From Schmidtea nova (taxonomy: Eukaryota): a stretch of 64,000 bases of DNA. Each line of letters starts with the position of its first letter. The stretch's first letter is position 1. The stretch is from NCBI GenBank assembly GCA_044892505.1, contig CM097882.1:451918001-451982000 (forward strand), written 5' to 3'. The translations under genes were made by a program, and so were the position numbers. The notes beneath the pieces are model-generated. The model was not told the DNA's origin and did no database searches. It was given only the letters and a program-made list of their open reading frames with translations. Shown here piece by piece: positions 25,806-62,522 of this stretch.

Positions 25806-25850
25806 GCTGATTGGTCAATGAACTGATCTGGTCAGTATAAATACTGATCC
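25806..25850 (+). promoter_or_regulatory. LTR promoter: ATTGG (CCAAT box) + TATAAATA at 25836 (copy at 48039)
   Basis: CTGATTGGTCAAT...CAGTATAAATA(C)TGATCCA is conserved with the diverged solo LTR (57381-57426) while the surrounding sequence is not. Confidence 0.7.
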
Positions 25851-26029
25851 AGATTCAGATAATTTCAAGGTAGTTTATGTTACATTTTTTAACGTAAAGT
25901 TATATGCTCTTTTGAATCAAATTTTGCTATTGGAGGTATGCTTATTATTTTTGTTATATATATTTGTGAATTTTGTCATTGCCATTAGCTAAATAAAACT
26001 TCTTTTAAAAATATCTTATTTTTATTAAG

Positions 26030-26382
26030 CTTCTTCCACTGTGTAATCAGTGGAAGGAGATAAAGGTATTCATAGGATTTATCATAATTAAATTAAGCTT
26101 CTTCCACTGTGCAATCAGTGGAAGGAGACGACTCTATTTATATATTTATTTATCCTTTATTGAGCTTCTTCCATCGTGTAATCGGTGGAAGGAGGCAACA
26201 TTGTGTATGATATTAACAATTAGGTTGAAGAATATTTTTATAAACAATTTTTGGGTCGAGCTTCTTCCCCTGTGAAATCAGTGGAAGGAGGCGAATATAT
26301 ATATTATTTATATACAGTAGATACAGTAGAAATTACGTATGATTTAAGGGGCTCCGATCACCGTGCAATCGGTGAAATGGAG
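26030..26382 (+). other. Array of five ~12-bp-stem hairpins with TG(T/C/A)AAT hexaloop (copy at 48233-48585)
   Basis: CTTCTTCCACTG-TGYAAT-CAGTGGAAGGAG at 26030, 26098, 26165, 26261 and a variant at 26352, separated by unique AT-rich spacers. Confidence 0.85.
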
Positions 26383-26853
26383 GCATACTGTGCCGAGTAG
26401 AATGACTGCTCCGTACAGTTGGGCCGTCCGACCGGTGTATAGCGCCGTGAAGAGGGTAGGAATTTTTATTTTAACCATGATTTCTAACCTTATTTTTCAC
26501 TGGATAGTATAACCAGTTGAAGTTTTATTTTATAACCGATTTGATTTTATGAGTTTATAGTTGAGTAGAGTTTGATTTTAGTTTGAGACAGATATAGCTG
26601 CGATCTTATTAACCTGGTTTTACCTTGAGATTCACAGAGTGTTAACGTATATTTTTCGATTGTCACATCTGGGGTTTGTGGGCATAGAGCGGCAGATACA
26701 CGGTTAAGAATTTGTACAAAATACATTTTTTAAATATAACCATTTCAAAAATCGATAATTCAATAGCGTAGTGATCTACTACGCAAGTAACATAACAGCA
26801 ATAGGTTATAGGATCAAACATTCCACATAAATAATTAAATATAATTGCTTATC

Positions 26854-26989
26854 CTGAACCCTGTACATAGGGCAGTAGATCTTAGTTTATTTAACTAATT
26901 TTGTAACCTGATTGCTGTATATAGCACAGGCGTGAATAAATAAAATGTATTAAGAAATAAATGTATCTGATCGCTGTACATAGCGACAG
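26854..26989 (+). other. Array of three bulged hairpins with GTAYAT hexaloop (copy at 49057-49192)
   Basis: CTG-AA-CCCT-GTACAT-AGGG-CAG; CCTG-AT-TGCT-GTATAT-AGCA-CAGG; CTG-A-TCGCT-GTACAT-AGCGA-CAG. Confidence 0.8.
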
Positions 26990-27711: not shown

Positions 27712-28311
27712 GAATTCTGTGATTTAGTTATTTTCGCGTATTAAATAATTTTTGTTTTGTATTTATTTTATCGTAAAGTATATGAAATAGAGTGATTTAT
27801 TAAAAATTTAAAATAATTTAAAGGAAAATATAAATTAAATTAACTATACATTAGAATTAACAATAAGATTAACATAAATCTAATAAACAATAGAAACATT
27901 AAAGAGATAATATATTGTAATTGACTAAAGATTATTTGTTGATATTGTAAAGAAGGGGGCTGAAAGAAAAGTTGAAAGTTGAAATATATTGTAAAGAAAA
28001 GGGGGCTAAAGAAACATTGAAATGAAAGATAATGGATGCGGATAGATTAAAGTAAAAGCGTAAGTCCTTCTATCGGCAGCGAGACGAACCCGTGAACATA
28101 AATGGGGAGTAGTTTTAGCAATAGAGCTCACCTGCCCATCATTGTTCAAACACCTTGCACATTTCCAACTCGATTATTACAGGGAAATGATCGAGGGTGC
28201 TCGTGTGATATGTAAGCATTTTATGTGAGGTTTTGGATGGAGGAATCCCTAGAGCGTTTAGTTTAATTTTCTAATTTTGTTTTAACCCAATCCAGACCGA
28301 CAACATAAATT

Positions 28312-29167: not shown

Positions 29168-29214
29168 TAAATAAATGATGAATTTAGTAATATTATTCGT
29201 AATAAATAAAATAT

Positions 29215-29400
29215 GAGAAAGGATAATGAGAATTAATATGATAATTCATAATGAGAATTAATATGAGAATTCGTAATAAGAATTAATAGGATAATTCATA
29301 ATGAGAATTAATATGAGAATTCGTAATAAGAATTAATATGAGAATTCATAATGAGAATTAATATGATAATTGATAATGAGAATTAATAATGAGAATTTAA
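29215..29400. repeat. Degenerate GAGAATTAATATGA(G/T)AATTC tandem repeat
   Basis: Seen directly; several imperfect units. Confidence 0.7.
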
Positions 29401-29871
29401 AATGAGAGTTGATAAAGGCAATGACAGAAATCATGATAGCAATTGATATTTATAAATAATTTTTGAGCTGCTCACGAGTAGTCCGTTAAGCACCCATTGG
29501 GAGGAACCAACTGATCAACTTACCCGAGATATATAGAAAGGGGCCCATCGCGGAAATTGGAAAGCTTTTGTGATGTGACTGATCACCACATCTTGCATTA
29601 GTAGACCAATGCGATCTTTTTGTATGTTTTGGTTGGGGTGAAAGGTAGGGACAATCTAATGAGGTTTAAGTGCATGCAGAAAATACAAATAAAAAAGAGA
29701 GAATAGAACACTGATCAGTGAAAGTCGAAAGAACATTAAGTAAATAAGTAGAATGAAAGTTAATGTGATAACTCTCATAACAATAGAGATAATTCAGCTG
29801 AATGATAACTAGCGAAGTGGATAATTGCGGTTAACCGGTTAAAGAGATTAGTTAAATACCTTGTATAAAAA

Positions 29872-30577
29872 GGGCAAATAAGCCATATTAGTTACTCTGA
29901 AAGAAGGGTCAAGGGCAAATAAGCCATATTAGTTACTCTGAAAGAAGGGTCAAGGGCAAATAAGCCATATTAGTTACTCTGAAAGAAGGGTCAAGGGCAA
30001 ATAAGCCAGATTAGTTACTCTGAAAGAAGGGTCAAGGGCAAATAAGCCATATTAGTTACTCTGAAAGAAGGGTCAAGGGCAAATAAGCCATATTAGTTAC
30101 TCTGAAAGAAGGGTCAAGGGCAAATAAGCCATATTAGTTACTCTGAAAGAAGGGTCAAGGGCAAATAAGCCATATTAGTTACTCTGAAAGAAGGGTCAAG
30201 GGCAAATAAGCCATATTAGTTACTCTGAAAGAAGGGTCAAGGGCAAATAAGCCATATTAGTTACTCTGAAAGAAGGGTCAAGGGCAAATAAGCCATATTA
30301 GTTACTCTGAAAGAAGGGTCAAGGGCAAATAAGCCATATTAGTTACTCTGAAAGAAGGGTCAAAGGCAAATAAGCCATATTAGTTACTCTGAAAGAAGGG
30401 TCAAGGGCAAATAAGCCATATTAATTACTCTGAAAGAAGGGTCAAGGGCAAATAAGCCATATTAGTTACTCTGAAAGAAGGGTCAAGGGCCAACAAGCCG
30501 TATTAGTTAATTACTCTGAAAGAAGGGTCAAGGGCCAACGAGCCATATTAGTTAATTACTCTGAAAGAAGGGTCAAC
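29872..30577. repeat. 41-bp tandem array (GGGCAAATAAGCCATATTAGTTACTCTGAAAGAAGGGTCAA), 15 near-perfect + 2 variant copies
   Basis: Exact 41-bp period from 29872 to 30487. Confidence 0.95.
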
Positions 30578-30579
30578 GG

Positions 30580-30800
30580 CAACATAAGAATTTGAACCTA
30601 TGATTGCAATAGTGATAGCAACACAAGGAATGTGAACCTGTGATTGCGATTGTGGATAGCAACACAAGGAATGTGAACCTGTGATTGCGATTATGGATAG
30701 CAACATAAGGAATATGAACCTATAGTTGTAATTGTTGAAATTTAGTAAATTTAGCAACCTAAGGAATTTGAACCCAGGTTTGCAATTGTGTGAAATTAAA
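30580..30800. repeat. Second degenerate array with 41-bp period (AAGGAATGTGAACCTGTGATTGCGATTGTGGATAGCAACAC)
   Basis: AAGGAAT recurs at 30625, 30666 and 30707. Confidence 0.75.
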
Positions 30801-31419
30801 TGACAACGAAAGGAATATGAACCTAGAGTTGAAGTCGTCGACGAAGTGAGAATAGTGAGCATTAGAGTTTGAGTAATACGAGTAAAGATGATTAAGTAAA
30901 CTAGAGATACAGTATGCATACAAGTAGAAATAAGAATAGGAGAAATTAGAGTTGACTAGAAATAGTGAGAATAATGAGTAATGATGATACCATGAATAGT
31001 GATAAAATGATAATTGAGTCAGGAGAACTCAAGGGAATTAAAGCGTTTGAGCGACAAATTAAATTGGGAGATTGAGGGAAAAGTAATGAATTTATTTGAT
31101 AACGATAGATAATTATTACGACCATATAGATAATTGTTACCAGTGAATAGATAATTTAAATAGACTTAAATAAAGGGGAAACCGGGAATGGGGAAACAAT
31201 GGAAACCCAATAATGAGGAATAAAAGCGCAACGATAACAATGATGTATCGTTGAAGTGACTTTTTAATTTAGATATACGGAACAGAACAAGTCAAAACAA
31301 CCAACCAATCAATCAGAATACGATAACAGAGAAACAGAAAAATTGATAAATTAAAGAAAAGTAAACCGAGATCAAGAGCAGTTAAAAATCAAGAAGTTAA
31401 TAATTCACAAAGAAATAAA

Positions 31420-47648: not shown

Positions 47649-50508
47649 TGTTGGATCCACCATTTGGTCCACATTTAACATAAAAAATAATAATAATAAT
47701 AAGAAATAAATAGGAACAAATTAAATGAATATAATTACGAGAAATATCAGTAAAAAACGAATTAAAATGTAATAAAGACTATTAATTTAATATCAAAATT
47801 AGAAGAAAAGTAAATGGAAAATGTAAAAGTGTTAAAGAAAAATGATAGTTAATTATATTTAAATAATAAGAAAGCGAAATAAATAAGTAAAAAAAAGAAG
47901 AAGAATTAATAAAAATTCGGTAAATTAAAACAAGAAAATGAAAATCATATTTGTTAATAAAATTGATTTTATTTTTACTAGAATTGTATTGATGACCATC
48001 AGATTGATGCTGATTGGTCAATGAACTGATCTGGTCAGTATAAATACTGATCCAGATTCAGATAATTTCAAGGTAGTTTATGTTACATTTTTTAACGTAA
48101 AGTTATATGCTCTTTTGAATCAAATTTTGCTATTGGAGGTATGCTTATTATTTTTGTTATATATATTTGTGAATTTTGTCATTGCCATTAGCTAAATAAA
48201 ACTTCTTTTAAAAATATCTTATTTTTATTAAGCTTCTTCCACTGTGTAATCAGTGGAAGGAGATAAAGGTATTCATAGGATTTATCATAATTAAATTAAG
48301 CTTCTTCCACTGTGCAATCAGTGGAAGGAGACGACTCTATTTATATATTTATTTATCCTTTATTGAGCTTCTTCCATCGTGTAATCGGTGGAAGGAGGCA
48401 ACATTGTGTATGATATTAACAATTAGGTTGAAGAATATTTTTATAAACAATTTTTGGGTCGAGCTTCTTCCCCTGTGAAATCAGTGGAAGGAGGCGAATA
48501 TATATATTATTTATATACAGTAGATACAGTAGAAATTACGTATGATTTAAGGGGCTCCGATCACCGTGCAATCGGTGAAATGGAGGCATACTGTGCCGAG
48601 TAGAATGACTGCTCCGTACAGTTGGGCCGTCCGACCGGTGTATAGCGCCGTGAAGAGGGTAGGAATTTTTATTTTAACCATGATTTCTAACCTTATTTTT
48701 CACTGGATAGTATAACCAGTTGAAGTTTTATTTTATAACCGATTTGATTTTATGAGTTTATAGTTGAGTAGAGTTTGATTTTAGTTTGAGACAGATATAG
48801 CTGCGATCTTATTAACCTGGTTTTACCTTGAGATTCACAGAGTGTTAACGTATATTTTTCGATTGTCACATCTGGGGTTTGTGGGCATAGAGCGGCAGAT
48901 ACACGGTTAAGAATTTGTACAAAATACATTTTTTAAATATAACCATTTCAAAAATCGATAATTCAATAGCGTAGTGATCTACTACGCAAGTAACATAACA
49001 GCAATAGGTTATAGGATCAAACATTCCACATAAATAATTAAATATAATTGCTTATCCTGAACCCTGTACATAGGGCAGTAGATCTTAGTTTATTTAACTA
49101 ATTTTGTAACCTGATTGCTGTATATAGCACAGGCGTGAATAAATAAAATGTATTAAGAAATAAATGTATCTGATCGCTGTACATAGCGACAGTGTTGAAA
49201 GTGTAATAGGTAAATCATTTTCTTTTCCTGAATTAGCAATTAATAACTGTCAAAAGTATGAGAATCGTTCGAATCAAGACTACCAATTTCATGTTAATAA
49301 ACCATCTTGAATTTTAGAGAATGTCAGCCAACACAGCAACTAATCAAGCCGAATTGGATAAAGCATGGAGGATAATTCGCAGCCTGGAAAAAGAAATGTT
49401 ACGGAAATCTGAAAAATTAAAAGAAGCCGATGGCATAATCTCAAACCTGAAGAAAAGCTGGTTCAGTCCAGAGCAGATGAAAACACAAATTATAAAAAAT
49501 CAACGCTCACAGCGAGCAAACGAGGAGATCAAAATGGAATTGGACGCGACGAACATGGAACTAAAGAAATGTCTAAAATCTGTAACGGCGTCGTATTTAA
49601 CTCAAGAGCTCAGCCAGCTCATTCGACCAATCACTTATCAGCATTGGGCTGACGAGAAAGCAGGATGCACAAAAGGAACGAACACCGAGGAACCATCTCA
49701 GGTTCGCGCAATAACAATAGCAGCAAGTACACCAAAGAACACGACAAATCCAGAAGGTAAAAGGAAGAAGAAGAGCAAGATGGGAGCGCGCCAGCGTCGC
49801 TGGAAGAAACAAGTTCTTCAGCAATTGGCACCGCAATCAAAAGAAATTCCCGAAATTGATCTAACTATGAACTTTGCAATATCGGATGAAGACATTACCA
49901 AATACTTTGAATAGGAATTCTGTGATTTAGTTATTTTCGCGTATTAAATAATTTTTGTTTTGTATTTATTTTATCGTAAAGTATATGAAATAGAGTGATT
50001 TATTAAAAATTTAAAATAATTTAAAGGAAAATATAAATTAAATTAACTATACATTAGAATTAACAATAAGATTAACATAAATCTAATAAACAATAGAAAC
50101 ATTAAAGAGATAATATATTGTAATTGACTAAAGATTATTTGTTGATATTGTAAAGAAGGGGGCTGAAAGAAAAGTTGAAAGTTGAAATATATTGTAAAGA
50201 AAAGGGGGCTAAAGAAACATTGAAATGAAAGATAATGGATGCGGATAGATTAAAGTAAAAGCGTAAGTCCTTCTATCGGCAGCGAGACGAACCCGTGAAC
50301 ATAAATGGGGAGTAGTTTTAGCAATAGAGCTCACCTGCCCATCATTGTTCAAACACCTTGCACATTTCCAACTCGATTATTACAGGGAAATGATCGAGGG
50401 TGCTCGTGTGATATGTAAGCATTTTATGTGAGGTTTTGGATGGAGGAATCCCTAGAGCGTTTAGTTTAATTTTCTAATTTTGTTTTAACCCAATCCAGAC
50501 CGACAACA
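47649..50508 (+). repeat. 3' LTR (2860 bp)
   Basis: Same sequence at offset 22200/22203; the encoded proteins are identical. Confidence 0.95.
49321..49914 (+). CDS. 3' LTR copy of the 197-aa LTR protein
   Basis: Identical translation to 27118-27711. Confidence 0.85.
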   Translation: MSANTATNQAELDKAWRIIRSLEKEMLRKSEKLKEADGIISNLKKSWFSPEQMKTQIIKNQRSQRANEEIKMELDATNMELKKCLKSVTASYLTQELSQLIRPITYQHWADEKAGCTKGTNTEEPSQVRAITIAASTPKNTTNPEGKRKKKSKMGARQRRWKKQVLQQLAPQSKEIPEIDLTMNFAISDEDITKYFE

Positions 50509-51560: not shown

Positions 51561-51633
51561 ATAATAATAATAATTATTATTATTATCAATAATTCTCATA
51601 ATGATGACTATAGATCAAAATTTTTTTTTAAAC

Positions 51634-51675
51634 AATACCACAATATTTCGGCACAGCCTTTATCAAGTGTGTATT
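51634..51675 (-). ncRNA. Inverted copy of the pLTR hammerhead ribozyme
   Basis: Reverse complement of 54501-54542. Confidence 0.65.
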
Positions 51676-53400
51676 TCAATCGTTATATTAACTTAATCCT
51701 AAATAGTAACCTTAATTATTTTTTTATATTTTAAAATGATTTTATTGGATGAAAAAATTTATTTTAATTTTTTTGTGCGAATTGAATGTTGATGGACGTT
51801 TGTATTTTTTATGTAAAAAGTCTCGGAAGCTAATCTTTGTAATGAATTTTTTAATCCCTCTTGTAGGATCTGGCATTTTGTTTCTTCTATAGATGGAGTT
51901 GTTTTATGTACTTTCTCCCAGTGTTCGTAATAGTTACTGGTTTTGTTTTTAGTGTGTTCATTAAGTCGGGTGCGAAAAGTTCTATGTGTTTCTCCTATGT
52001 AAGTAGCATCACATTTTTGACAAGAAAGTTAATATACTATATTTTTGGAAAAGCAAAAGCATCGGGTTGTGGAATGCAACTGTATGAGCCCTTACCTAGT
52101 AATATGACTATGTTACCTAAAGACCACAAAAGTCCTTTAAAAGGCAGACCTCTTGTATCCGTTGTTGACACTCCTTCCACAACACTTTCTAAAGTTCTTT
52201 CAGAAATCCTAAAAACACTTTTGCCTTTGGTTCCTTGTCATCTTAAAAACACAACTGAATTCGTCTCCGAAATTACAAATACGTCTCTTCCGTTAAACGC
52301 AGGACAACAGTACTTCTAGGGATCTCTTGATGTTTTCAATCTTTACGGATCTATTCCTCTTCACGGAGAGAATAATATTTTCGATATCGCAGCTTCTTTC
52401 TTTGAAACTCATAAAGCCAATACTGACCTCACAGACTTAACTAAACACAACTTTATAGAACTTCTAAAATTAGCAATAAATTCAGATACTGTCATAATTA
52501 AAGAAAAACCATTCAAACAAATTCATGGATTAGCCATTGGTAATAACCTTTCTCCCATCTTAGCCATCTTCTACATGAAAAAATTTATTTTAATTTTTTT
52601 GTGCGAATTGAATGTTGATGGACGTTTGTATTTTTTATGTAAAAAGTCTCGGAAGCTAATCTTTGTAATGAATTTTTTAATCCCTCTTGTAGGATCTGGC
52701 ATTTTGTTTCTTCTATAGATGGAGTTGTTTTATGTACTTTCTCCCAGTGTTCGTAATAGTTACTGGTTTTGTTTTTAGTGTGTTCATTAAGTCGGGTGCG
52801 AAAAGTTCTATGTGTTTCTCCTATGTAAGTAGCATCACATTTTTGACAAGAAAGTTAATATACTATATTTTTGGAAAAGCAAAAGCATCGGGTTGTGGAA
52901 TGCAACTGTATGAGCCCTTACCTAGTAATATGACTATGTTACCTAAAGACCACAAAAGTCCTTTAAAAGGCAGACCTCTTGTATCCGTTGTTGACACTCC
53001 TTCCACAACACTTTCTAAAGTTCTTTCAGAAATCCTAAAAACACTTTTGCCTTTGGTTCCTTGTCATCTTAAAAACACAACTGAATTCGTCTCCGAAATT
53101 ACAAATACGTCTCTTCCGTTAAACGCAGGACAACAGTACTTCTAGGGATCTCTTGATGTTTTCAATCTTTACGGATCTATTCCTCTTCACGGAGAGAATA
53201 ATATTTTCGATATCGCAGCTTCTTTCTTTGAAACTCATAAAGCCAATACTGACCTCACAGACTTAACTAAACACAACTTTATAGAACTTCTAAAATTAGC
53301 AATAAATTCAGATACTGTCATAATTAAAGAAAAACCATTCAAACAAATTCATGGATTAGCCATTGGTAATAACCTTTCTCCCATCTTAGCCATCTTCTAC

Positions 53401-54417
53401 ATGAACTTTATAGAATCTAAGATCATATCTTTTTTTGGGGACAAAATACTTTTCTGGAAACGATACATCGACGACATCTTCATAGTCTCCACAATCCCTC
53501 TCAATCAAATCCTATCACACACAAATTCTAATAAGACCAACATACAATTCACTTTTGAAACACCGAACACAGAAGGTAAAATACCGTTTTTAGATACCAT
53601 GGTAAGTTTCACAAAAGGCCAAGATACACTAAATGCAAACACCGAGCAATATTCTAAAAGTTTACATAGCGGTCATATCCTCCCATGGAAAAGCCACGTT
53701 CCACTTCAACGCAAAATCGCATTACTAATAGGAGAAAGAAAAAGAGCCATAAGAAACTGTTCAGACGCAAACAAAATACAAGAAACATTAGAAAACTTCA
53801 AAATACGATTCCTTCAAAATGGATACCCTGAAGAATTTGTAAAGAAATATTTCCTTAACGAACCATACCACAATAAATGCAACAATAGGAAACGCCAGAA
53901 ACACAATAACAATAACAAACACACAACATATCTAAGATTACCTTTCCTAAATGACATTACAGCCAACAAAATCACCAACATTTTTAATCAAACAGATTTG
54001 CCTATCCACATCCGTTCAACGTTCATAACCTCCGCACCGTTAAAATCACAACTCCGAAAGCCACCAATTTCCAACATCTCCAAACATAAATGTCTTTGCC
54101 ATTCCACAACCCAATGCTTTTGCTTTTCCAAAAATATAGTATATAAACTTTCTTGTCAAAAATGTGACGCTACTTACATAGGAGAAACACATAGAACTTT
54201 TCACACCCGACTTAATGAACACACTAAAAACAAAACCAGTAACTCTTACGAACACTGGGAGAAAGTACATAAAACAACTCCATCTATAGAAGAAACAAAA
54301 TGCCAGATTCTACAAGAGGGATTCAAAAATTCATTACAAAGATTAGCTTCCGAGACTTTTTACATAAAAAATACAAACGTCCATCAACATTCAATTCGCA
54401 CAAAAAAATTAAAATAA
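53401..54417 (+). CDS. C-terminal part of the Penelope RT + GIY-YIG ORF (upstream part broken by a stop)
   Basis: YIDDIF, GKIPFLDT, YIGETHRTFHTRLNEH. Confidence 0.85.
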   Translation: MNFIESKIISFFGDKILFWKRYIDDIFIVSTIPLNQILSHTNSNKTNIQFTFETPNTEGKIPFLDTMVSFTKGQDTLNANTEQYSKSLHSGHILPWKSHVPLQRKIALLIGERKRAIRNCSDANKIQETLENFKIRFLQNGYPEEFVKKYFLNEPYHNKCNNRKRQKHNNNNKHTTYLRLPFLNDITANKITNIFNQTDLPIHIRSTFITSAPLKSQLRKPPISNISKHKCLCHSTTQCFCFSKNIVYKLSCQKCDATYIGETHRTFHTRLNEHTKNKTSNSYEHWEKVHKTTPSIEETKCQILQEGFKNSLQRLASETFYIKNTNVHQHSIRTKKLK

Positions 54418-54500
54418 ATTTTTTCATCCAATAAAATCATTTTAAAATATAAAAAAATAATTAAGGTTACTATTTAGGATTAAGTTAATATAACGATTGA

Positions 54501-54542
54501 AATACACACTTGATAAAGGCTGTGCCGAAATATTGTGGTATT
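54501..54542 (+). ncRNA. Minimal type I hammerhead ribozyme in the Penelope pLTR (U3-A8 variant)
   Basis: AATACACAC-TTGATAA-A-GGC-TGT-GCC-GAA-ATAT-T-GTGGTATT: core UUGAUAA/GAAA, 3-bp stem II, palindromic stem III, and stem I AATAC.CAC/GTG.GTATT. Confidence 0.7.
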
Positions 54543-54575
54543 GTTTAAAAAAATAATTTTTGATCTATAGTCATC

Positions 54576-56851: not shown

Positions 56852-58138
56852 TGTGTATTAATTAATTTTTTATGTGTTTTTGTTATTAAATTTGTTTTTT
56901 TTTGGTGTTTCCTGTTGATAATTTAAATTCACTTCGATCCGCTACGATTAAACAAGACTTGATTAGGTTTAGTTTTTGCCCAATAATGCTATTCAAAATA
57001 TATTTTTTGGAAAATGAAGGGGGTAGATGTTAGTGTTGGGCCCGCCAAATCACCTAAAATCACAATAAAAGAACGAAAGCATGAAACAATAAGGAAATAA
57101 TAAACATAAAAATAACAATAAAAACAAATTAAAAATAAGAATAAAATGACAAATAATATTTGATAAGTTTCCAGCAAAAGGAAATTTTGAAAATAAGCCG
57201 GTAAACAACAGCAAAGGGGGGCCTGAAATAAAAAAAGATAGAATTAAATAAACTAATAGTACAAATAATTAATTAATTACTCGAAAAATCAGGACCACCC
57301 AGCGAGAAACCGGAAAAGGAAACAAAATAATATTTAGGTTTAAATAAAATAACAAAAATACTTTGATGGACGGTCTGATCCTGATTGGTCAATCCAACCA
57401 GACGGATCAGTATAAATACCGATCCAAAAACCACAACTTAACTTTTTCACTAAAACTTAACTGTTAGATAAAATCTTTACAAAACGCACTTTGTACTAGA
57501 ACTATTACCAGAAACGATTTTCGAGGAACAGTCTTAATTTTCAAATCCGAAGAAACATTCAAGTACGGAACGTAACATTTTAATTTTGTTTTATTATTGT
57601 ATATTGATGTTAATGTACCCATGATTTTTCATCCATTATAATTTTACGAAACTTTTATTTTTCTTCTATCTTAATTTAACCATGCATATAGTTATACTTC
57701 CTAGGCTGCTCACGCGGCGAGGGAGTCCGAGTCGTCGTTGTGGGGCCTCACGGTCTCACATGGTGGTTCAACCTTTTTAGTATTCATTTTAGATTTAGAA
57801 TTTTATTTGATAATATGACTGAATTTTGATCTAATCCAGACAATTTACTAATGATAATTAAATTATTTAATTCTGGGTTGCACAGAGGATGAGTGTCGAG
57901 GGCTAAATAGTGAAAATGCGGAGAGCAGCTTGATAATGGGGAACACCCAAGGGGAGGGTGTACTCAGCATCATAACGCGTAGTAAAATGAGCCGAAACTG
58001 AACCTCCAGCATGGAGAACAGTGACAAACAAAAAGAATTAATTCAAATAATTTCGATAGAATGGAAAATTTCAATCATGATTAAAGTCCGATTTCATTCG
58101 GAACTAGCACCTCACATACATAGTCACAAGATCGATAA

Positions 58139-58355
58139 ATTCCGATCGCATTAGAATGCGACGGAAAATCCAAATCAAATCAAGAGAATCTAAAAATAGA
58201 CCGATCGTCGTACATGGCGCGGATCACCTAATTTATCTTCCGATCGCTGTATATAGCGCGGAGAATTTTTGAATAAATTTTAGGCTTCCTGAATGCTGTA
58301 CATAGCACAGGACTAATTATGAATTCCTTATTTCCGACCGTGGTAGATCACGGCG
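58139..58355 (+). other. Five bulged hairpins, four with GTAnAT loop, in the solo LTR
   Basis: CCG-AT-CGTC-GTACAT-GGCG-CGG (58201), TCCG-AT-CGCT-GTATAT-AGCG-CGGA (58239), TCCTG-AA-TGCT-GTACAT-AGCA-CAGGA (58287), CCGTG-GTAGAT-CACGG (58338), TCCG-A-TCGCA-TTAGAA-TGCGA-CGGA (about 58141). Confidence 0.8.
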
Positions 58356-58475
58356 AGACAAATAAATATAATCATATTTTAGACCAATTTTTGTTGTTTT
58401 ACGTGGTATCAGTAAATCATCCTACAAATTTTCCTCCGATAAACTCTATGTTTTATATTCGATAACCTAATACAG

Positions 58476-58955
58476 ATGTCGACAGCTGAGATTATGGACA
58501 AATTGACCCAAATGCGGAATTTGGAACAAGGAAGTGCAGAGAATGGAACGGTCTCTCAACTCAAGGAGCTACCTGCACCGATATTGCGGACCCTCAACGC
58601 TCAAATGTACAAGTGGAGACACGGGTTCGGTCGAAAATGCCCGTTTTCCATATGGGCTGGAGGAAGCGATCAGGTACTCTACCGGGGAGGACCGAATTGG
58701 CCAATTTCCCAAAGGCCTTACTCGAACAAATTTGGACAAATAATCGTGGTGATAAAGGACGCAGAAGGACGATCGAGTCGAATAATTTATTGGGGACATA
58801 TCCCTCGCCGAGAGTTATGCCAATTGGGACTACAAGCGTTTCTACCGCGGAAACCGTTTGGCAAGGAATGTCAGAAGGGACAACCCCCATTTTCTTGGGC
58901 TCGACTGCGGCGGATGCTGATCAACAACGAACTACACTGCCTATTTCGGCGATAA
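58476..58955 (+). CDS. 159-aa ORF of unknown function inside the solo LTR
   Basis: GC-elevated intact ORF with ATG directly after CAG; no motif recognised; no counterpart in the 2.86-kb LTR. Confidence 0.45.
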   Translation: MSTAEIMDKLTQMRNLEQGSAENGTVSQLKELPAPILRTLNAQMYKWRHGFGRKCPFSIWAGGSDQVLYRGGPNWPISQRPYSNKFGQIIVVIKDAEGRSSRIIYWGHIPRRELCQLGLQAFLPRKPFGKECQKGQPPFSWARLRRMLINNELHCLFRR

Positions 58956-59130
58956 AATTTTATAACAATGATAATTATAAATAAAAATCTTATTGTTTCT
59001 CAATGGTCTTGGTTTTGAATTTCTGAATTATTAAATCTATCATGTTCTCGATTAAAAAATCATTTACTCATATTGAAATTTTAAGCATTTTTTAAAGCGA
59101 CAAAGGCAATTATTTTAAATCAATTATAGA

Positions 59131-59727
59131 ATGAATACCGATCTGGCACAAAGAGAGTTGGAAAAGATGTGGCGAATCCGGAGAGCCCAGGACAAGGAAT
59201 TGGGTCTCCTCAAAGCACAATTATCCAAAGCCGAGGCGCAAGTCACCTATTTGCGCAAAAGCTGGTTCGCTCCGGCCCGGATGAAGGAGCAAATCAGTAA
59301 AACCGAACGTGCCCAGCAAACCGCAGCCGATTATAAACTGGAATGGGAAGCTACCAAAATAGAGCTTCGGAAATGCCTCCATTCAGTGACTGCCTCTTAT
59401 ATCGAAAGGGAGTTACGAGATCAAATCCGACCGATCACATACCAAGAATGGACGGCGGAAAAGAAAAGCGTCAACTCGATTGGCACGGACGTCGACGATC
59501 TCTTGGAAGACCGAAACAAGCCAGTTCCAGCAATAAATCCATCCACTTCAACTGCAAATGCGCACCAGAAACGCAAGCGCATCGGGCAGAAACGGCGAAG
59601 GCAAAGAAAACTATTCGCGCAACGATTGCAGAATCAAGTAGACGGCCTGCACAAAATGACAGAAGAGGAATTATTAGCAGAAATATTTCCCCCAGCCGGA
59701 GTTTTCACCGAATTAATTAAAGATTAA
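59131..59727 (+). CDS. 198-aa LTR-encoded coiled-coil/Arg-rich protein (homologue of 27118-27711)
   Basis: Aligns without gaps over the first ~110 aa; basic motif QKRKRIGQKRRRQRK. Confidence 0.85.
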   Translation: MNTDLAQRELEKMWRIRRAQDKELGLLKAQLSKAEAQVTYLRKSWFAPARMKEQISKTERAQQTAADYKLEWEATKIELRKCLHSVTASYIERELRDQIRPITYQEWTAEKKSVNSIGTDVDDLLEDRNKPVPAINPSTSTANAHQKRKRIGQKRRRQRKLFAQRLQNQVDGLHKMTEEELLAEIFPPAGVFTELIKD

Positions 59728-60197
59728 ATAAATTCTCGTATTATCGTCAAATTTTTGTTGTTTACCTAAATTAGTTTAGTTAATGGAATAAATAATAATA
59801 TACCTGTGATATAAAAAATATAACTTTACAATACAAAACACCTAAGACAGGCAAATAAATAATTAAAGGAGCACTCGGATAACAAACTTCATGCAGAATA
59901 AGTGATGTTAAAGACAAATTTTCTGAAAGTTTATTGTGGAGTACCTAAGTAGATGATTAAAGCGTAAGTCCTTCTAACGGCAGCAATGAACCCGTAAACA
60001 TAAATGGGGAGTAGTACTAGCGATAGTGCTCACCTGCCCATCATTGTTTAACCACCCTGCGCATCACCAACTTGATTATATAGGGAAATAATCAAGGGCG
60101 CTTGAGTGTATAATTGCAATTTTATGTATGATCATGGATGAGGGATCCCTAGCCATTGTTAGAGCATTTTTCATCTAACCCCTCCATGAACCCAGCA

Positions 60198-60560
60198 TTA
60201 GATAGCATAGAGCGATGTTCCAAGTTGATAAATTATGTGGACCTTAGGAAGTTAAAGAAATTATGCGCGTAAAACCTTATATCGTCAACAGGAACCCGAA
60301 AGATAGAATACAGTGAGTAGTTGTGACAAAAAAGCTCACCTTCTCATTGAATTCTCATCCACCGTGTATATCATCAACATAGATTTTTAAGAAGTAATCA
60401 TGGGTACACGAGTGAGGAGAATTAGCGCTTTCATGAAAGTGGATGGGCTATGGTAACCCGTGACAATATTTTTTACAACCCATTCACCAACAACAGTCTT
60501 AACCTGCAGAATATAAAGAATTTCTGGAGAAAAGTGAATTTCATGACATCTAGCACGTTA
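60198..60560 (-). pseudogene. Degenerate unidentified ORF interrupted by the solo LTR
   Basis: DYFLKIYVDDIHGG*EFNEKV..YSIFRVPVDDIRFYAHNFFNFLRST*FINLEHRSMLS|NIYPLHFP reads through the TTAG TSD into 57029-57000. Confidence 0.4.
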
Positions 60561-60860: not shown

Positions 60861-62522
60861 ATGCAATTTAGTTGTATTTGTAATTATGAACATTGTGTTG
60901 AAAAAAAATGTAACACTTATTTTGGTTGCTTTAAATTAATCTCATTGTACGGCAATGATACCGGTAAATTGTATTTGAATTGCCTAAAGCAACCAATTCA
61001 TAATTCATACATTTGTCAAAATTCTACCAAAACTCAAGTAAAATGTTGTGATTTTAATCTCTGTAATAAAAACTCTACATTCAATAAATATATTAAAGCA
61101 ACACAGACTTCAAATTTTGATGAAAATGATTATTATTCTCTTTCAATAAAATTTGTTATTCCATTTTGTGTTGCTGCAATGATACTTTTAGTGATTTGTT
61201 TGATTATGTTCAATAAATATCACCACAATTTATCACGATATCTTAAATTGTATTCAAATTTTACTATTCGTAACAATAATAATAATAATAATTACTCTCG
61301 TCAATTGTCCGAGAATCAAGCGGAATATAAACCCTATGTCGATGATTGTGAACGAAGTCTATCAAATTCTAACAATAATCACAGTAGATTTGTGGAGAAT
61401 TATTCTGGGTTGTTACCATTAAATGAAGAAGAAGCTCGATATAATCGTCAGTCATCAGTGCATTGTGATTCGTGCACAAGTGGCAGTGGATCAGGAATGC
61501 CTTTCCTCGTCCAACGGACAATTGCTCGACAAGTTCAGCTGATAAATGGCATCGGTAAAGGCCGTTTTGGTGAGGTATGGAAAGGAGCTTATTATGGTGA
61601 AATGGTAGCAGTAAAGATATTTTCCAGCCGTGATGAAACGAGTTGGGCACGTGAAACTCACATTTACAATACATATTTATTGCGTCATCCGAATATTCTC
61701 GGTTATTATGCATCAGATATGGTATCAAGATTCGGGTGTACACAACTGTGGTTGATTACTCACTATCATGCGTTGGGGTCGCTTTATGATTATCTGCATT
61801 CTACTGTGATTTCTTTCAACGAGTGTGTGAATCTGTTGCACAGTACAGCCGCTGGATTGTCACATCTACACACTGAAATCATTTCCGGTCCTCAAGGAAA
61901 GCCATCAATTGCCCATCGGGATTTAAAATCGAAAAATATTCTCATTATCAAACCTGGCGAAGCCTGTATTGCCGATTTGGGGTTGTCAGTTCTTCAGTCG
62001 TCTACAAATTGTCTTTGTCCGTCACCTGTAAATAGCAAACATAAAATCGGTACTCGACGTTATATGGCGCCGGAAATTCTCGTCGATTGTTTGTGTCCTG
62101 ACAGTGATTTTGCAATAGAAAACTGCTTAGCCGATCCGACATCACCCAGTATTGTTGCTGGCACTCAACACGATGCGTGTCCGATTCGATTTGAGCATTT
62201 CATTTCCGCAGATATCTATGCGTTTGCACTCGTAATGTGGGAAGTTGTAACGCGCACCTTTCTCTCAGGACAGAAAAATATTACGGAGTACAAAGTGCCA
62301 TATCAAGATATAGTGCCACTTGATCCAAGCACTGCTGAAATGCGACAATTGGTATGCGTGGACAAATTCCGGCCCGAATTGCCGGATTCTCAATCCGGTT
62401 TTGTGTTGGAATTAAATGCGATGATTCGTGAAAGTTGGTCGGAAAAATCTCAAACTCGACCGAGTGCTTTGCGTTTAAAGAAAAATCTGAAATCTCTTCT
62501 ATCAACTGAAAATCTGTGTTAA
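60861..62522 (+). CDS. ACVR1: TGF-beta/BMP type I receptor kinase, ALK1/ALK2 (ACVR1/Saxophone) class; signal peptide missing from this ORF
   Basis: Cys box CCDFNLCN, TM FVIPFCVAAMILLVICLIMF, GS box TSGSGSGMPFLVQRTIARQ, GKGRFGEVW, L45 loop ASDMVSRFGCTQLW (ALK1/2-like), HRDLKSKNIL, GTRRYMAPE. Confidence 0.9.
   Translation: MQFSCICNYEHCVEKKCNTYFGCFKLISLYGNDTGKLYLNCLKQPIHNSYICQNSTKTQVKCCDFNLCNKNSTFNKYIKATQTSNFDENDYYSLSIKFVIPFCVAAMILLVICLIMFNKYHHNLSRYLKLYSNFTIRNNNNNNNYSRQLSENQAEYKPYVDDCERSLSNSNNNHSRFVENYSGLLPLNEEEARYNRQSSVHCDSCTSGSGSGMPFLVQRTIARQVQLINGIGKGRFGEVWKGAYYGEMVAVKIFSSRDETSWARETHIYNTYLLRHPNILGYYASDMVSRFGCTQLWLITHYHALGSLYDYLHSTVISFNECVNLLHSTAAGLSHLHTEIISGPQGKPSIAHRDLKSKNILIIKPGEACIADLGLSVLQSSTNCLCPSPVNSKHKIGTRRYMAPEILVDCLCPDSDFAIENCLADPTSPSIVAGTQHDACPIRFEHFISADIYAFALVMWEVVTRTFLSGQKNITEYKVPYQDIVPLDPSTAEMRQLVCVDKFRPELPDSQSGFVLELNAMIRESWSEKSQTRPSALRLKKNLKSLLSTENLC

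Follow-up and report, generated by a model that had tools for sequence, protein, structure and literature searches.

A selected array of bulged RNA hairpins in the LTRs of Burro-like giant retroelements is a likely protein docking array on intron-containing RNA

The LTRs of Burro-like giant retroelements in Schmidtea nova contain an array of short bulged hairpins that is a real, selected and repeated RNA motif. The example described here consists of five stem-loops at 58140-58358 of the window, by which we mean the whole stretch of 64,000 nucleotides that was analysed (GenBank assembly GCA_044892505.1, contig CM097882.1, positions 451,918,001 to 451,982,000 of the forward strand). The direct observations comprise the hairpins, their covariation and strand, purifying selection, their confinement to LTRs and a conserved basic protein. 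When the readings that involve the basic protein, Pumilio, Gag or a host splicing factor are taken jointly, it is likely that the array serves as a protein docking array on intron-containing LTR RNA. The best of these readings, which is drawn by analogy and which we put forward tentatively, is that the hairpins are Rev/RRE-like docking sites on RNA that has not been spliced; the ligand would most likely be the basic, predicted coiled-coil protein of the same LTR.

The window contains two families of the retroelement, A and B. Giant gypsy-like LTR elements named Burro, or GYPSM1, are known from planarians (PMC6431247), and the 25-kb element of family A at 25449-50508, the two LTRs of which are 99.86% identical over 2,861 nt, shares with them a Gag with CCHC, the ankyrin and TRAF/MATH plus RING cargo, the 25-kb size and a mononegavirus-like, in-frame fusion (glyco)protein between Gag and protease. 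The part of that published description used here mentions neither LTR genes nor LTR hairpins. Pfam reports Gag/CCHC, a Monjiviricetes-type fusion protein, protease, ankyrin, RING and TRAF/MATH domains in the family A element and no reverse transcriptase, and the element fits among the Burro-like giant gypsy LTR elements. It has the TSD ATCA and is very young, and many copies of A have an LTR spacing of approximately 22 kb; family A is probably a successful non-autonomous family. Tandem arrays of 25-nt and 41-nt repeats lie at 29185-30840, between the RING gene and gag.

The five hairpins lie on the + strand in an LTR of family B (57034-60197) that is 3,164 nt long, begins with TG and ends with CA. 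The sequence TTAG occurs on both sides, at 57030-57033 and 60198-60201, and no PBS lies behind it, which bears out the original prediction that this is a solo LTR. The same LTR ends are found in a family-B two-LTR copy elsewhere in the genome (L091-L094), the translations of which, judged by eye, feature a YIDD-bearing RT-like frame and an integrase-like frame; the solo LTR appears to belong to an element type with RT and integrase. An intron-less TGF-beta type I receptor-like gene is located 660 nt behind the solo LTR on the same strand (60861-62522). Elsewhere in the window, the fragments at 51603-54575 comprise an 826-nt tandem duplication and an inverted copy, with an RT tail and GIY-YIG-like sequence recognised by eye (Penelope-like); Pfam found nothing in them at cutoff.

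Families A and B have in common the polypurine tract and primer site, 81% identity across approximately 200 nt at the LTR 3' end and an LTR protein that is 41% identical, which indicates that the families are homologous and that their arrays were inherited from a common ancestor. The array in family B had been described as an independent replicate, a view that this homology contradicts. Homologous arrays of three units are present on the + strand of the family A 5' LTR (26854-26989) and 3' LTR (49057-49192).

All five predicted hairpins, four with GTAnAT loops and one with a TTAGAA loop, were recovered. They had been expected to share one bulge geometry, which is the case for units 2-4 and fails for units 1 and 5. 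In units 2-4, a lower stem of 3 bp is followed by a 5' bulge of 2 nt, the first of which is A, and by an upper stem of 4 bp that carries a loop of 6 nt. Unit 2 (58201-58222) has a GTACAT loop, a C-G closing pair, one G-U pair and an incomplete Pumilio element; unit 3 (58240-58261) has a GTATAT loop, a T-A closing pair and a full UGUAnAUA; and unit 4 (58289-58310) has a GTACAT loop, again with a T-A closing pair and a full UGUAnAUA. Units 1 and 5 follow a second geometry, in which the bulge is a single A and the upper stem has 5 bp. Unit 1 (58140-58166) carries the TTAGAA loop, which varies among subfamilies, and unit 5 (58334-58356) has a GTAGAT loop, a G-C closing pair, a weak lower stem and an incomplete Pumilio element; its 3' arm extends 1-3 nt beyond the previously assigned end at 58355.

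Shuffled sequences of equal composition do not reach the hairpin frequency of the array, which answers a control suggested with the original prediction. A scan for the geometry that is blind to the loop passed four units in 58139-58355, and 5,000 dinucleotide shuffles of that segment gave a mean of 0.017 and a maximum of 1. For the whole solo LTR, the same four units passed on the + strand and none on the - strand (300 shuffles: mean 0.09, maximum 2). Scanning both strands of the whole window yielded seven matches, all on the + strand, all within LTR arrays and all with GTAYAT loops. Across 75 oriented loci (76 were supplied, and one that has no anchor motif was left out), 111 sense matches, 104 of them with GTAnAT loops, compare with 14 antisense matches with mixed loops. 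The folding energy of the whole array is only modestly low (z = -2.0, with 7 of 200 shuffles equally good), which suggests that the signal resides in the repeated geometry. A degenerate pattern in which the arms are free to vary independently, such that no pairing is imposed, has 3,566 matches in the genome as opposed to three for the reversed control. No hairpin units occur inside two full elements, in line with the confinement of the array to LTRs. Rfam gave no family match for the hairpins, as its four matches are at chance level (E 0.43-3.2) and all far below the gathering score, and a literature search at the level of titles and abstract starts found no description of this array.

The stems change in a manner that preserves pairing. 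In a census of 220 distinct contexts, which was drawn from the retrieved loci and is biased to the families searched, 1,096 of 1,100 variable stem cells pair, and column shuffles reach at most 917; for 38 distinct 22-mers, pairing is found in 186 of 190 stem cells, and shuffles reach at most 164. We based the pair counts on the census and did not use an alignment chosen for full pairing, which would be circular. Column shuffles ignore relatedness, and the fair count is therefore one of events: double-sided, compensatory changes are present at six of seven stem pairs and represent at least about seven events, with each stem type inherited along clades of the tree. The earlier assertion that covariation makes the structure credible is thus supported. 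Stem cells with T-G number 33 and those with C-A number 2, an excess that goes back to few events. Loop closure by G-U is likewise seen only on the + strand, and both features point to sense RNA.

Other parts of the units hardly change. A search that put no constraint on the bulge and fixed the loop only at GT and the final T yielded 249 fully paired units; in 247 of them the bulge starts with A, and in 243 the loop is GTAnAT. Every base occurs at loop position 4, with C 119, T 70, G 19 and A 12 in the 220 contexts. Of 37 relatives, 21 have the unit-1 anchor, and in these the identity to the window is 97% for units and 84% for spacers; choosing by the anchor biases unit 1. Synonymous sites of the neighbouring ORF, by comparison, reach a dS of 0.4-1.8. 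Three structural or processing roles were rejected from the unit sequences: a kissing-loop dimer, because loop position 4 takes any base and the common GTAGAT and GTAAAT loops are not self-complementary; a K-turn, because the units have no tandem G-A pairs; and a decoy branch point and acceptor, because CUGA..CAG changes to CCGA..CGG.

The LTR is ordered as CCAAT/TATA-like boxes, first donor-like site (D1), class II hairpin block, array, ORF-U, 198-aa ORF and second donor-like site, with promoter, splicing and poly(A) site inferred from sequence features. The predicted core promoter (57381-57419, + strand) combines an inverted CCAAT-like box with a TATA-like box at 57411, and the same motifs recur at the corresponding position in clades A, B and C. 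Each of the boxes lies within inverted repeats in A and B (25810-25865; 57380-57425), and the TATA hexamer might also act as a variant poly(A) signal in a hairpin loop. The donor-like motif at 57572-57577 is the predicted D1. Among loci with a TATA call, such a motif follows TATA at a distance of 70-215 nt in 19 of 20 B loci and 31 of 32 A loci, and of 70-300 nt in 12 of 13 C loci; the motifs were written after the sequences had been seen. Just behind D1 lies the class II block (57696-57769, + strand), which in B consists of two hairpins with -35 kcal/mol and is conserved within that clade. At the same position behind the donor-like site, A and C have different conserved hairpin blocks, which comprise 1-5 long TGYAAT-loop hairpins in A (26030-26400 and 48233-48600) and a branched block in C (L207, L253-L272). 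The class II block is a candidate for a packaging signal or for the true target of the basic protein.

Each LTR gene lies directly behind a YAG, which is a CAG with the predicted acceptor at 58474-58475 for ORF-U and a TAG with the predicted acceptor at 59128-59129 for the 198-aa ORF. Of 45 intact copies of the 198-aa ORF, 43 have a YAG no more than 6 nt from the start, as compared with 360 of 1,792 other ATGs (20%), and one precedes the start of the basic-protein ORF in 44 of 50 clade C loci. The first unit lies 670-1,435 nt behind the TATA-like box, the start site itself being predicted, and the last unit is a median of 137 nt ahead of the first acceptor-like site (89-515, n=52); the spacing has an SD of 62 nt from array to acceptor-like site versus 143 nt from TATA to first unit. 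A second predicted donor, GTAAGT at 59964-59969 on the + strand, opens a conserved LTR end of 230 nt, with the exact motif in 8 of the 14 loci listed from A and B. These last 230 nt (59955-60197; 28055-28305) are the most conserved part between A and B and have a stable fold, and an exact pattern for the LTR end has 1,457 matches in the genome. Searching for intron-less LTR copies with one A-type and one B-type exact pattern gave none, which is a weak negative. Two read runs had flat, DNA-like depth across unique flank and gene, which makes them uninformative on expression or splicing, and no GT-AG joint was among the joints listed. Whatever the R boundaries, the LTR is copied with the array segment intact, which suggests that the replicated RNA must retain this segment.

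Two proteins are encoded behind the array. As had been claimed, the array precedes the first LTR ORF, which starts at 58476 and is a conserved gene. This ORF-U (58476-58955, + strand; 159 aa), directly behind the CAG of the predicted acceptor, belongs to clade B and was not found in clade A; its homologs in B-clade loci are 39-80% identical, with dN of 0.10-0.27 versus dS of 1.1-2.8 in four pairs. It has no Pfam, Atlas or Foldseek match, the best Z of 4.2 being counted as no match. One LTR (L214) contains four identical tandem copies of ORF-U at 775-nt spacing, and a distant LTR clade locus (L207, 945-2274) holds a possible remote homolog (E 0.008 in a single comparison).

The second ORF (59131-59727, + strand), behind the TAG of its predicted acceptor, encodes the 198-aa basic protein and is under purifying selection, with dN/dS of about 0.05-0.14 in five pairs. 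The protein is predicted by AlphaFold (pTM 0.28) to have long, coiled-coil-like N-terminal helices, a variable disordered linker, a basic helix and an acidic-aromatic tail. An Arg/Lys-rich motif at residues 147-160 (59569-59610), which is recognised by conservation and falls in a region modelled as helical, has K147, R156, R157 and K160 invariant in 27 sequences, and dN is 0-0.07 over residues 144-164. A scan with one classical CRM1-type export pattern gave a match behind the basic motif in 10 of 27 proteins; all ten are of clade A, and the protein of the window is not among them. No homologs were found at E<=0.001 among 130 candidates, and the protein has no Pfam family at cutoff, where its coiled-coil matches are weak and fall below it, and no viral fold match. 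More distant LTR clades (L207:945-2274; L217:1177-1539) encode divergent versions of the basic protein.

Array and protein co-occur in clades A and B. Hairpin units are present in 65 of 75 loci found by the ORF, and the ORF lies downstream in 28 of 30 loci found by hairpins (19 of 21 arrays). Of 20 loci chosen by the LTR 3' end, 19 have the ORF and 11 have GTAnAT-type units by a strict scan, many others being truncated or interrupted. In clade C, the protein is 26-30% identical and the promoter-donor-acceptor layout and Arg-rich motif are kept. The array was found in none of 50 clade C loci, some of which are truncated or rearranged, and no clear substitute was seen there, as a different stem is patchily present in 11 of the 50 and a search for a repeated motif found none. 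The basic motif differs between A and B under the same hairpin, and the motifs of B and C look alike under a different hairpin, which indicates that motif and hairpin do not change together and that no co-evolution is seen.

These observations can be assembled into the Rev/RRE-like docking model that we prefer. The LTR promoter would produce an RNA whose first intron, from D1 to the YAG-ATG acceptors, holds the array, and splicing of that intron would generate the mRNA for the basic protein. This protein would recognise folded units by their bulged A and their GUAnAU loop and multimerise via its helices along 2-5 units, and the bound protein would hinder the nearby acceptor, such that intron-containing RNA is kept and exported. 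The element would need such RNA, since copying of its LTR requires that the intron is still in place. We count in favour of this model the readout of a folded state, in that the bulged A and GTAnAT loop are near-fixed while the stems change in pairs, the co-occurrence of array and protein in A and B, the placement of the array before the first acceptor-like site, its absence inside full elements and the lack of an intron-less LTR copy. We count against it the basic protein of clade C that has no array, the absence of motif-hairpin co-evolution, the export pattern in only 10 of 27 proteins and the full Pumilio element held by 150 of 169 units. The acidic-aromatic tail could equally be a transcription-activation domain, and the basic motif could be a plain nuclear localisation signal.

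Several known RNA-protein systems resemble the array in part. PP7/MS2 coat-protein operators and the iron-responsive element are short hairpins read through one bulged base and the loop, as the array units may be; their loop sequences and organisms differ from those of the array, which has no Rfam match. TAR, with a 5' bulge, a 4-bp upper stem and a 6-nt loop, is similar in geometry and sits at the very start of R; a TAR-type position at the transcript 5' end was rejected for the array, which is repeated and begins far behind the TATA-like box. The basic motif of the 198-aa protein resembles that of Tat. The 198-aa protein further differs from the Tat/TAR system (PMC12789967) in having no Cys-rich domain. 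Rev-like proteins and their response elements (Rev/RRE, Rex, Rem, Rej and Rec) are given only for lenti-, delta- and betaretroviruses in the portions of PMC5568270 and PMC3856414 drawn on here. The likeness to these systems lies in a small helical protein in which an Arg-rich motif is followed by a hydrophobic tail, the order of parts found in the 198-aa protein, in a spliced mRNA for that protein, which is predicted here, and in a structured RNA in or near the LTR on intron-containing RNA (PMC5568270). The array lies in the LTR between donor-like and acceptor-like sites, its intron status being predicted. The differences are that the 198-aa protein has no sequence or fold match to those proteins and no conserved classical NES was found in it, that one large structure there compares with 2-5 separate 22-nt hairpins here, and that the function, in which such a protein would bind its element and promote the export of unspliced RNA, is here a predicted one. 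By analogy, the array at best works like Rev/RRE, and we do not class it as a member.

The hairpins might instead hold host Pumilio elements partly closed, such that binding upon opening represses or localises intron-retaining RNA in the cytoplasm, perhaps in competition with a second ligand of the folded state; this is the main rival to the docking model we prefer, and we regard it as rather unlikely. Pumilio binds its element in an extended mode, its sites are usually in the 3' UTR, and NORAD contains arrays of such elements. The full element, UGUANAUA, is present in 150 of 169 units, including two of the five in the window array; 64 of 65 arrays have at least one and 55 have at least two, and the same leaders, 126 kb in total, contain just 19 elements that are not part of a unit. 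The free loop position coincides exactly with position 5 of the consensus, UGUAnAUA (PMC11602169, PMC13692250). Precedent is provided by the viral RNAs HSUR1/2, in which Pumilio binds an element in the 3' loop (PMC13692250); most units of the array bear UGUAnAUA at their apex, in several copies. The array differs by its directly paired flanks, invariant bulge and some conserved units that do not have the full element. Because the first and last bases of the element pair in the predicted fold, the fold would occlude it, and Pumilio alone does not account for the invariant bulge or stem length. Furthermore, 19 of 169 units, which are spread over 15 of 65 arrays and include units 2 and 5 of the window array, replace the first U and the last A of the element by C or G. 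These units nonetheless retain GTAnAT and the bulged A across subfamilies, which suggests that the hairpin is recognised in its folded form irrespective of any binding by Pumilio.

It is less probable still that the array is a packaging or dimerisation signal read by the Gag nucleocapsid of the element, with a location in the first intron that would restrict packaging to unspliced RNA. The element has a Gag with CCHC knuckles, a position behind the first donor-like site resembles the one that retroviral Psi occupies in the 5' leader (PMC12789967), and family A, which has no Pfam reverse transcriptase, keeps the array as it would a cis mobilisation signal. However, the base counts at loop position 4 show that this is no self-complementary kissing loop, Psi could just as well be the class II block that directly follows the donor, and clade C has no array. 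We give the same low weight to a splicing-control element that is read by a host nuclear protein and tunes the first LTR acceptor, in cis- or trans-splicing, with no element-encoded ligand. The fairly fixed distance to the first acceptor-like site is consistent with such control, as is the same hairpin beneath two different basic motifs, but other accessory ORFs inside elements have no such hairpins, and neither an Rfam match nor a candidate protein was identified. Transcription-factor sites acting as quasi-palindromic DNA, or neutral by-products of duplication, are highly improbable. LTRs are enhancer-rich and the units are imperfect inverted repeats, which speaks for them, but the paired double changes, the T-G excess over C-A and the conservation of units over spacers in relatives whose synonymous ORF sites reach a dS of about 1.5 all argue against them.

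Taken further, the Rev/RRE-like reading raises the possibility, on balance a doubtful one, that a gypsy-type flatworm retroelement evolved an early-to-late switch wholly inside its LTR and independently of retroviruses, in which spliced LTR mRNA yields an Arg-rich coiled-coil protein that coats the hairpins of its own intron, displaces host Pumilio and licenses the unspliced genome. If so, thousands of solo LTRs would supply or titrate the regulator in trans. To our knowledge, little has been established about how LTR retroelements outside Retroviridae retain and export unspliced RNA. The array offers a defined 22-nt RNA motif, at no fewer than 3,566 places in one genome, with two candidate ligands, the element-encoded basic protein and host Pumilio, either of which would be new for Burro elements.
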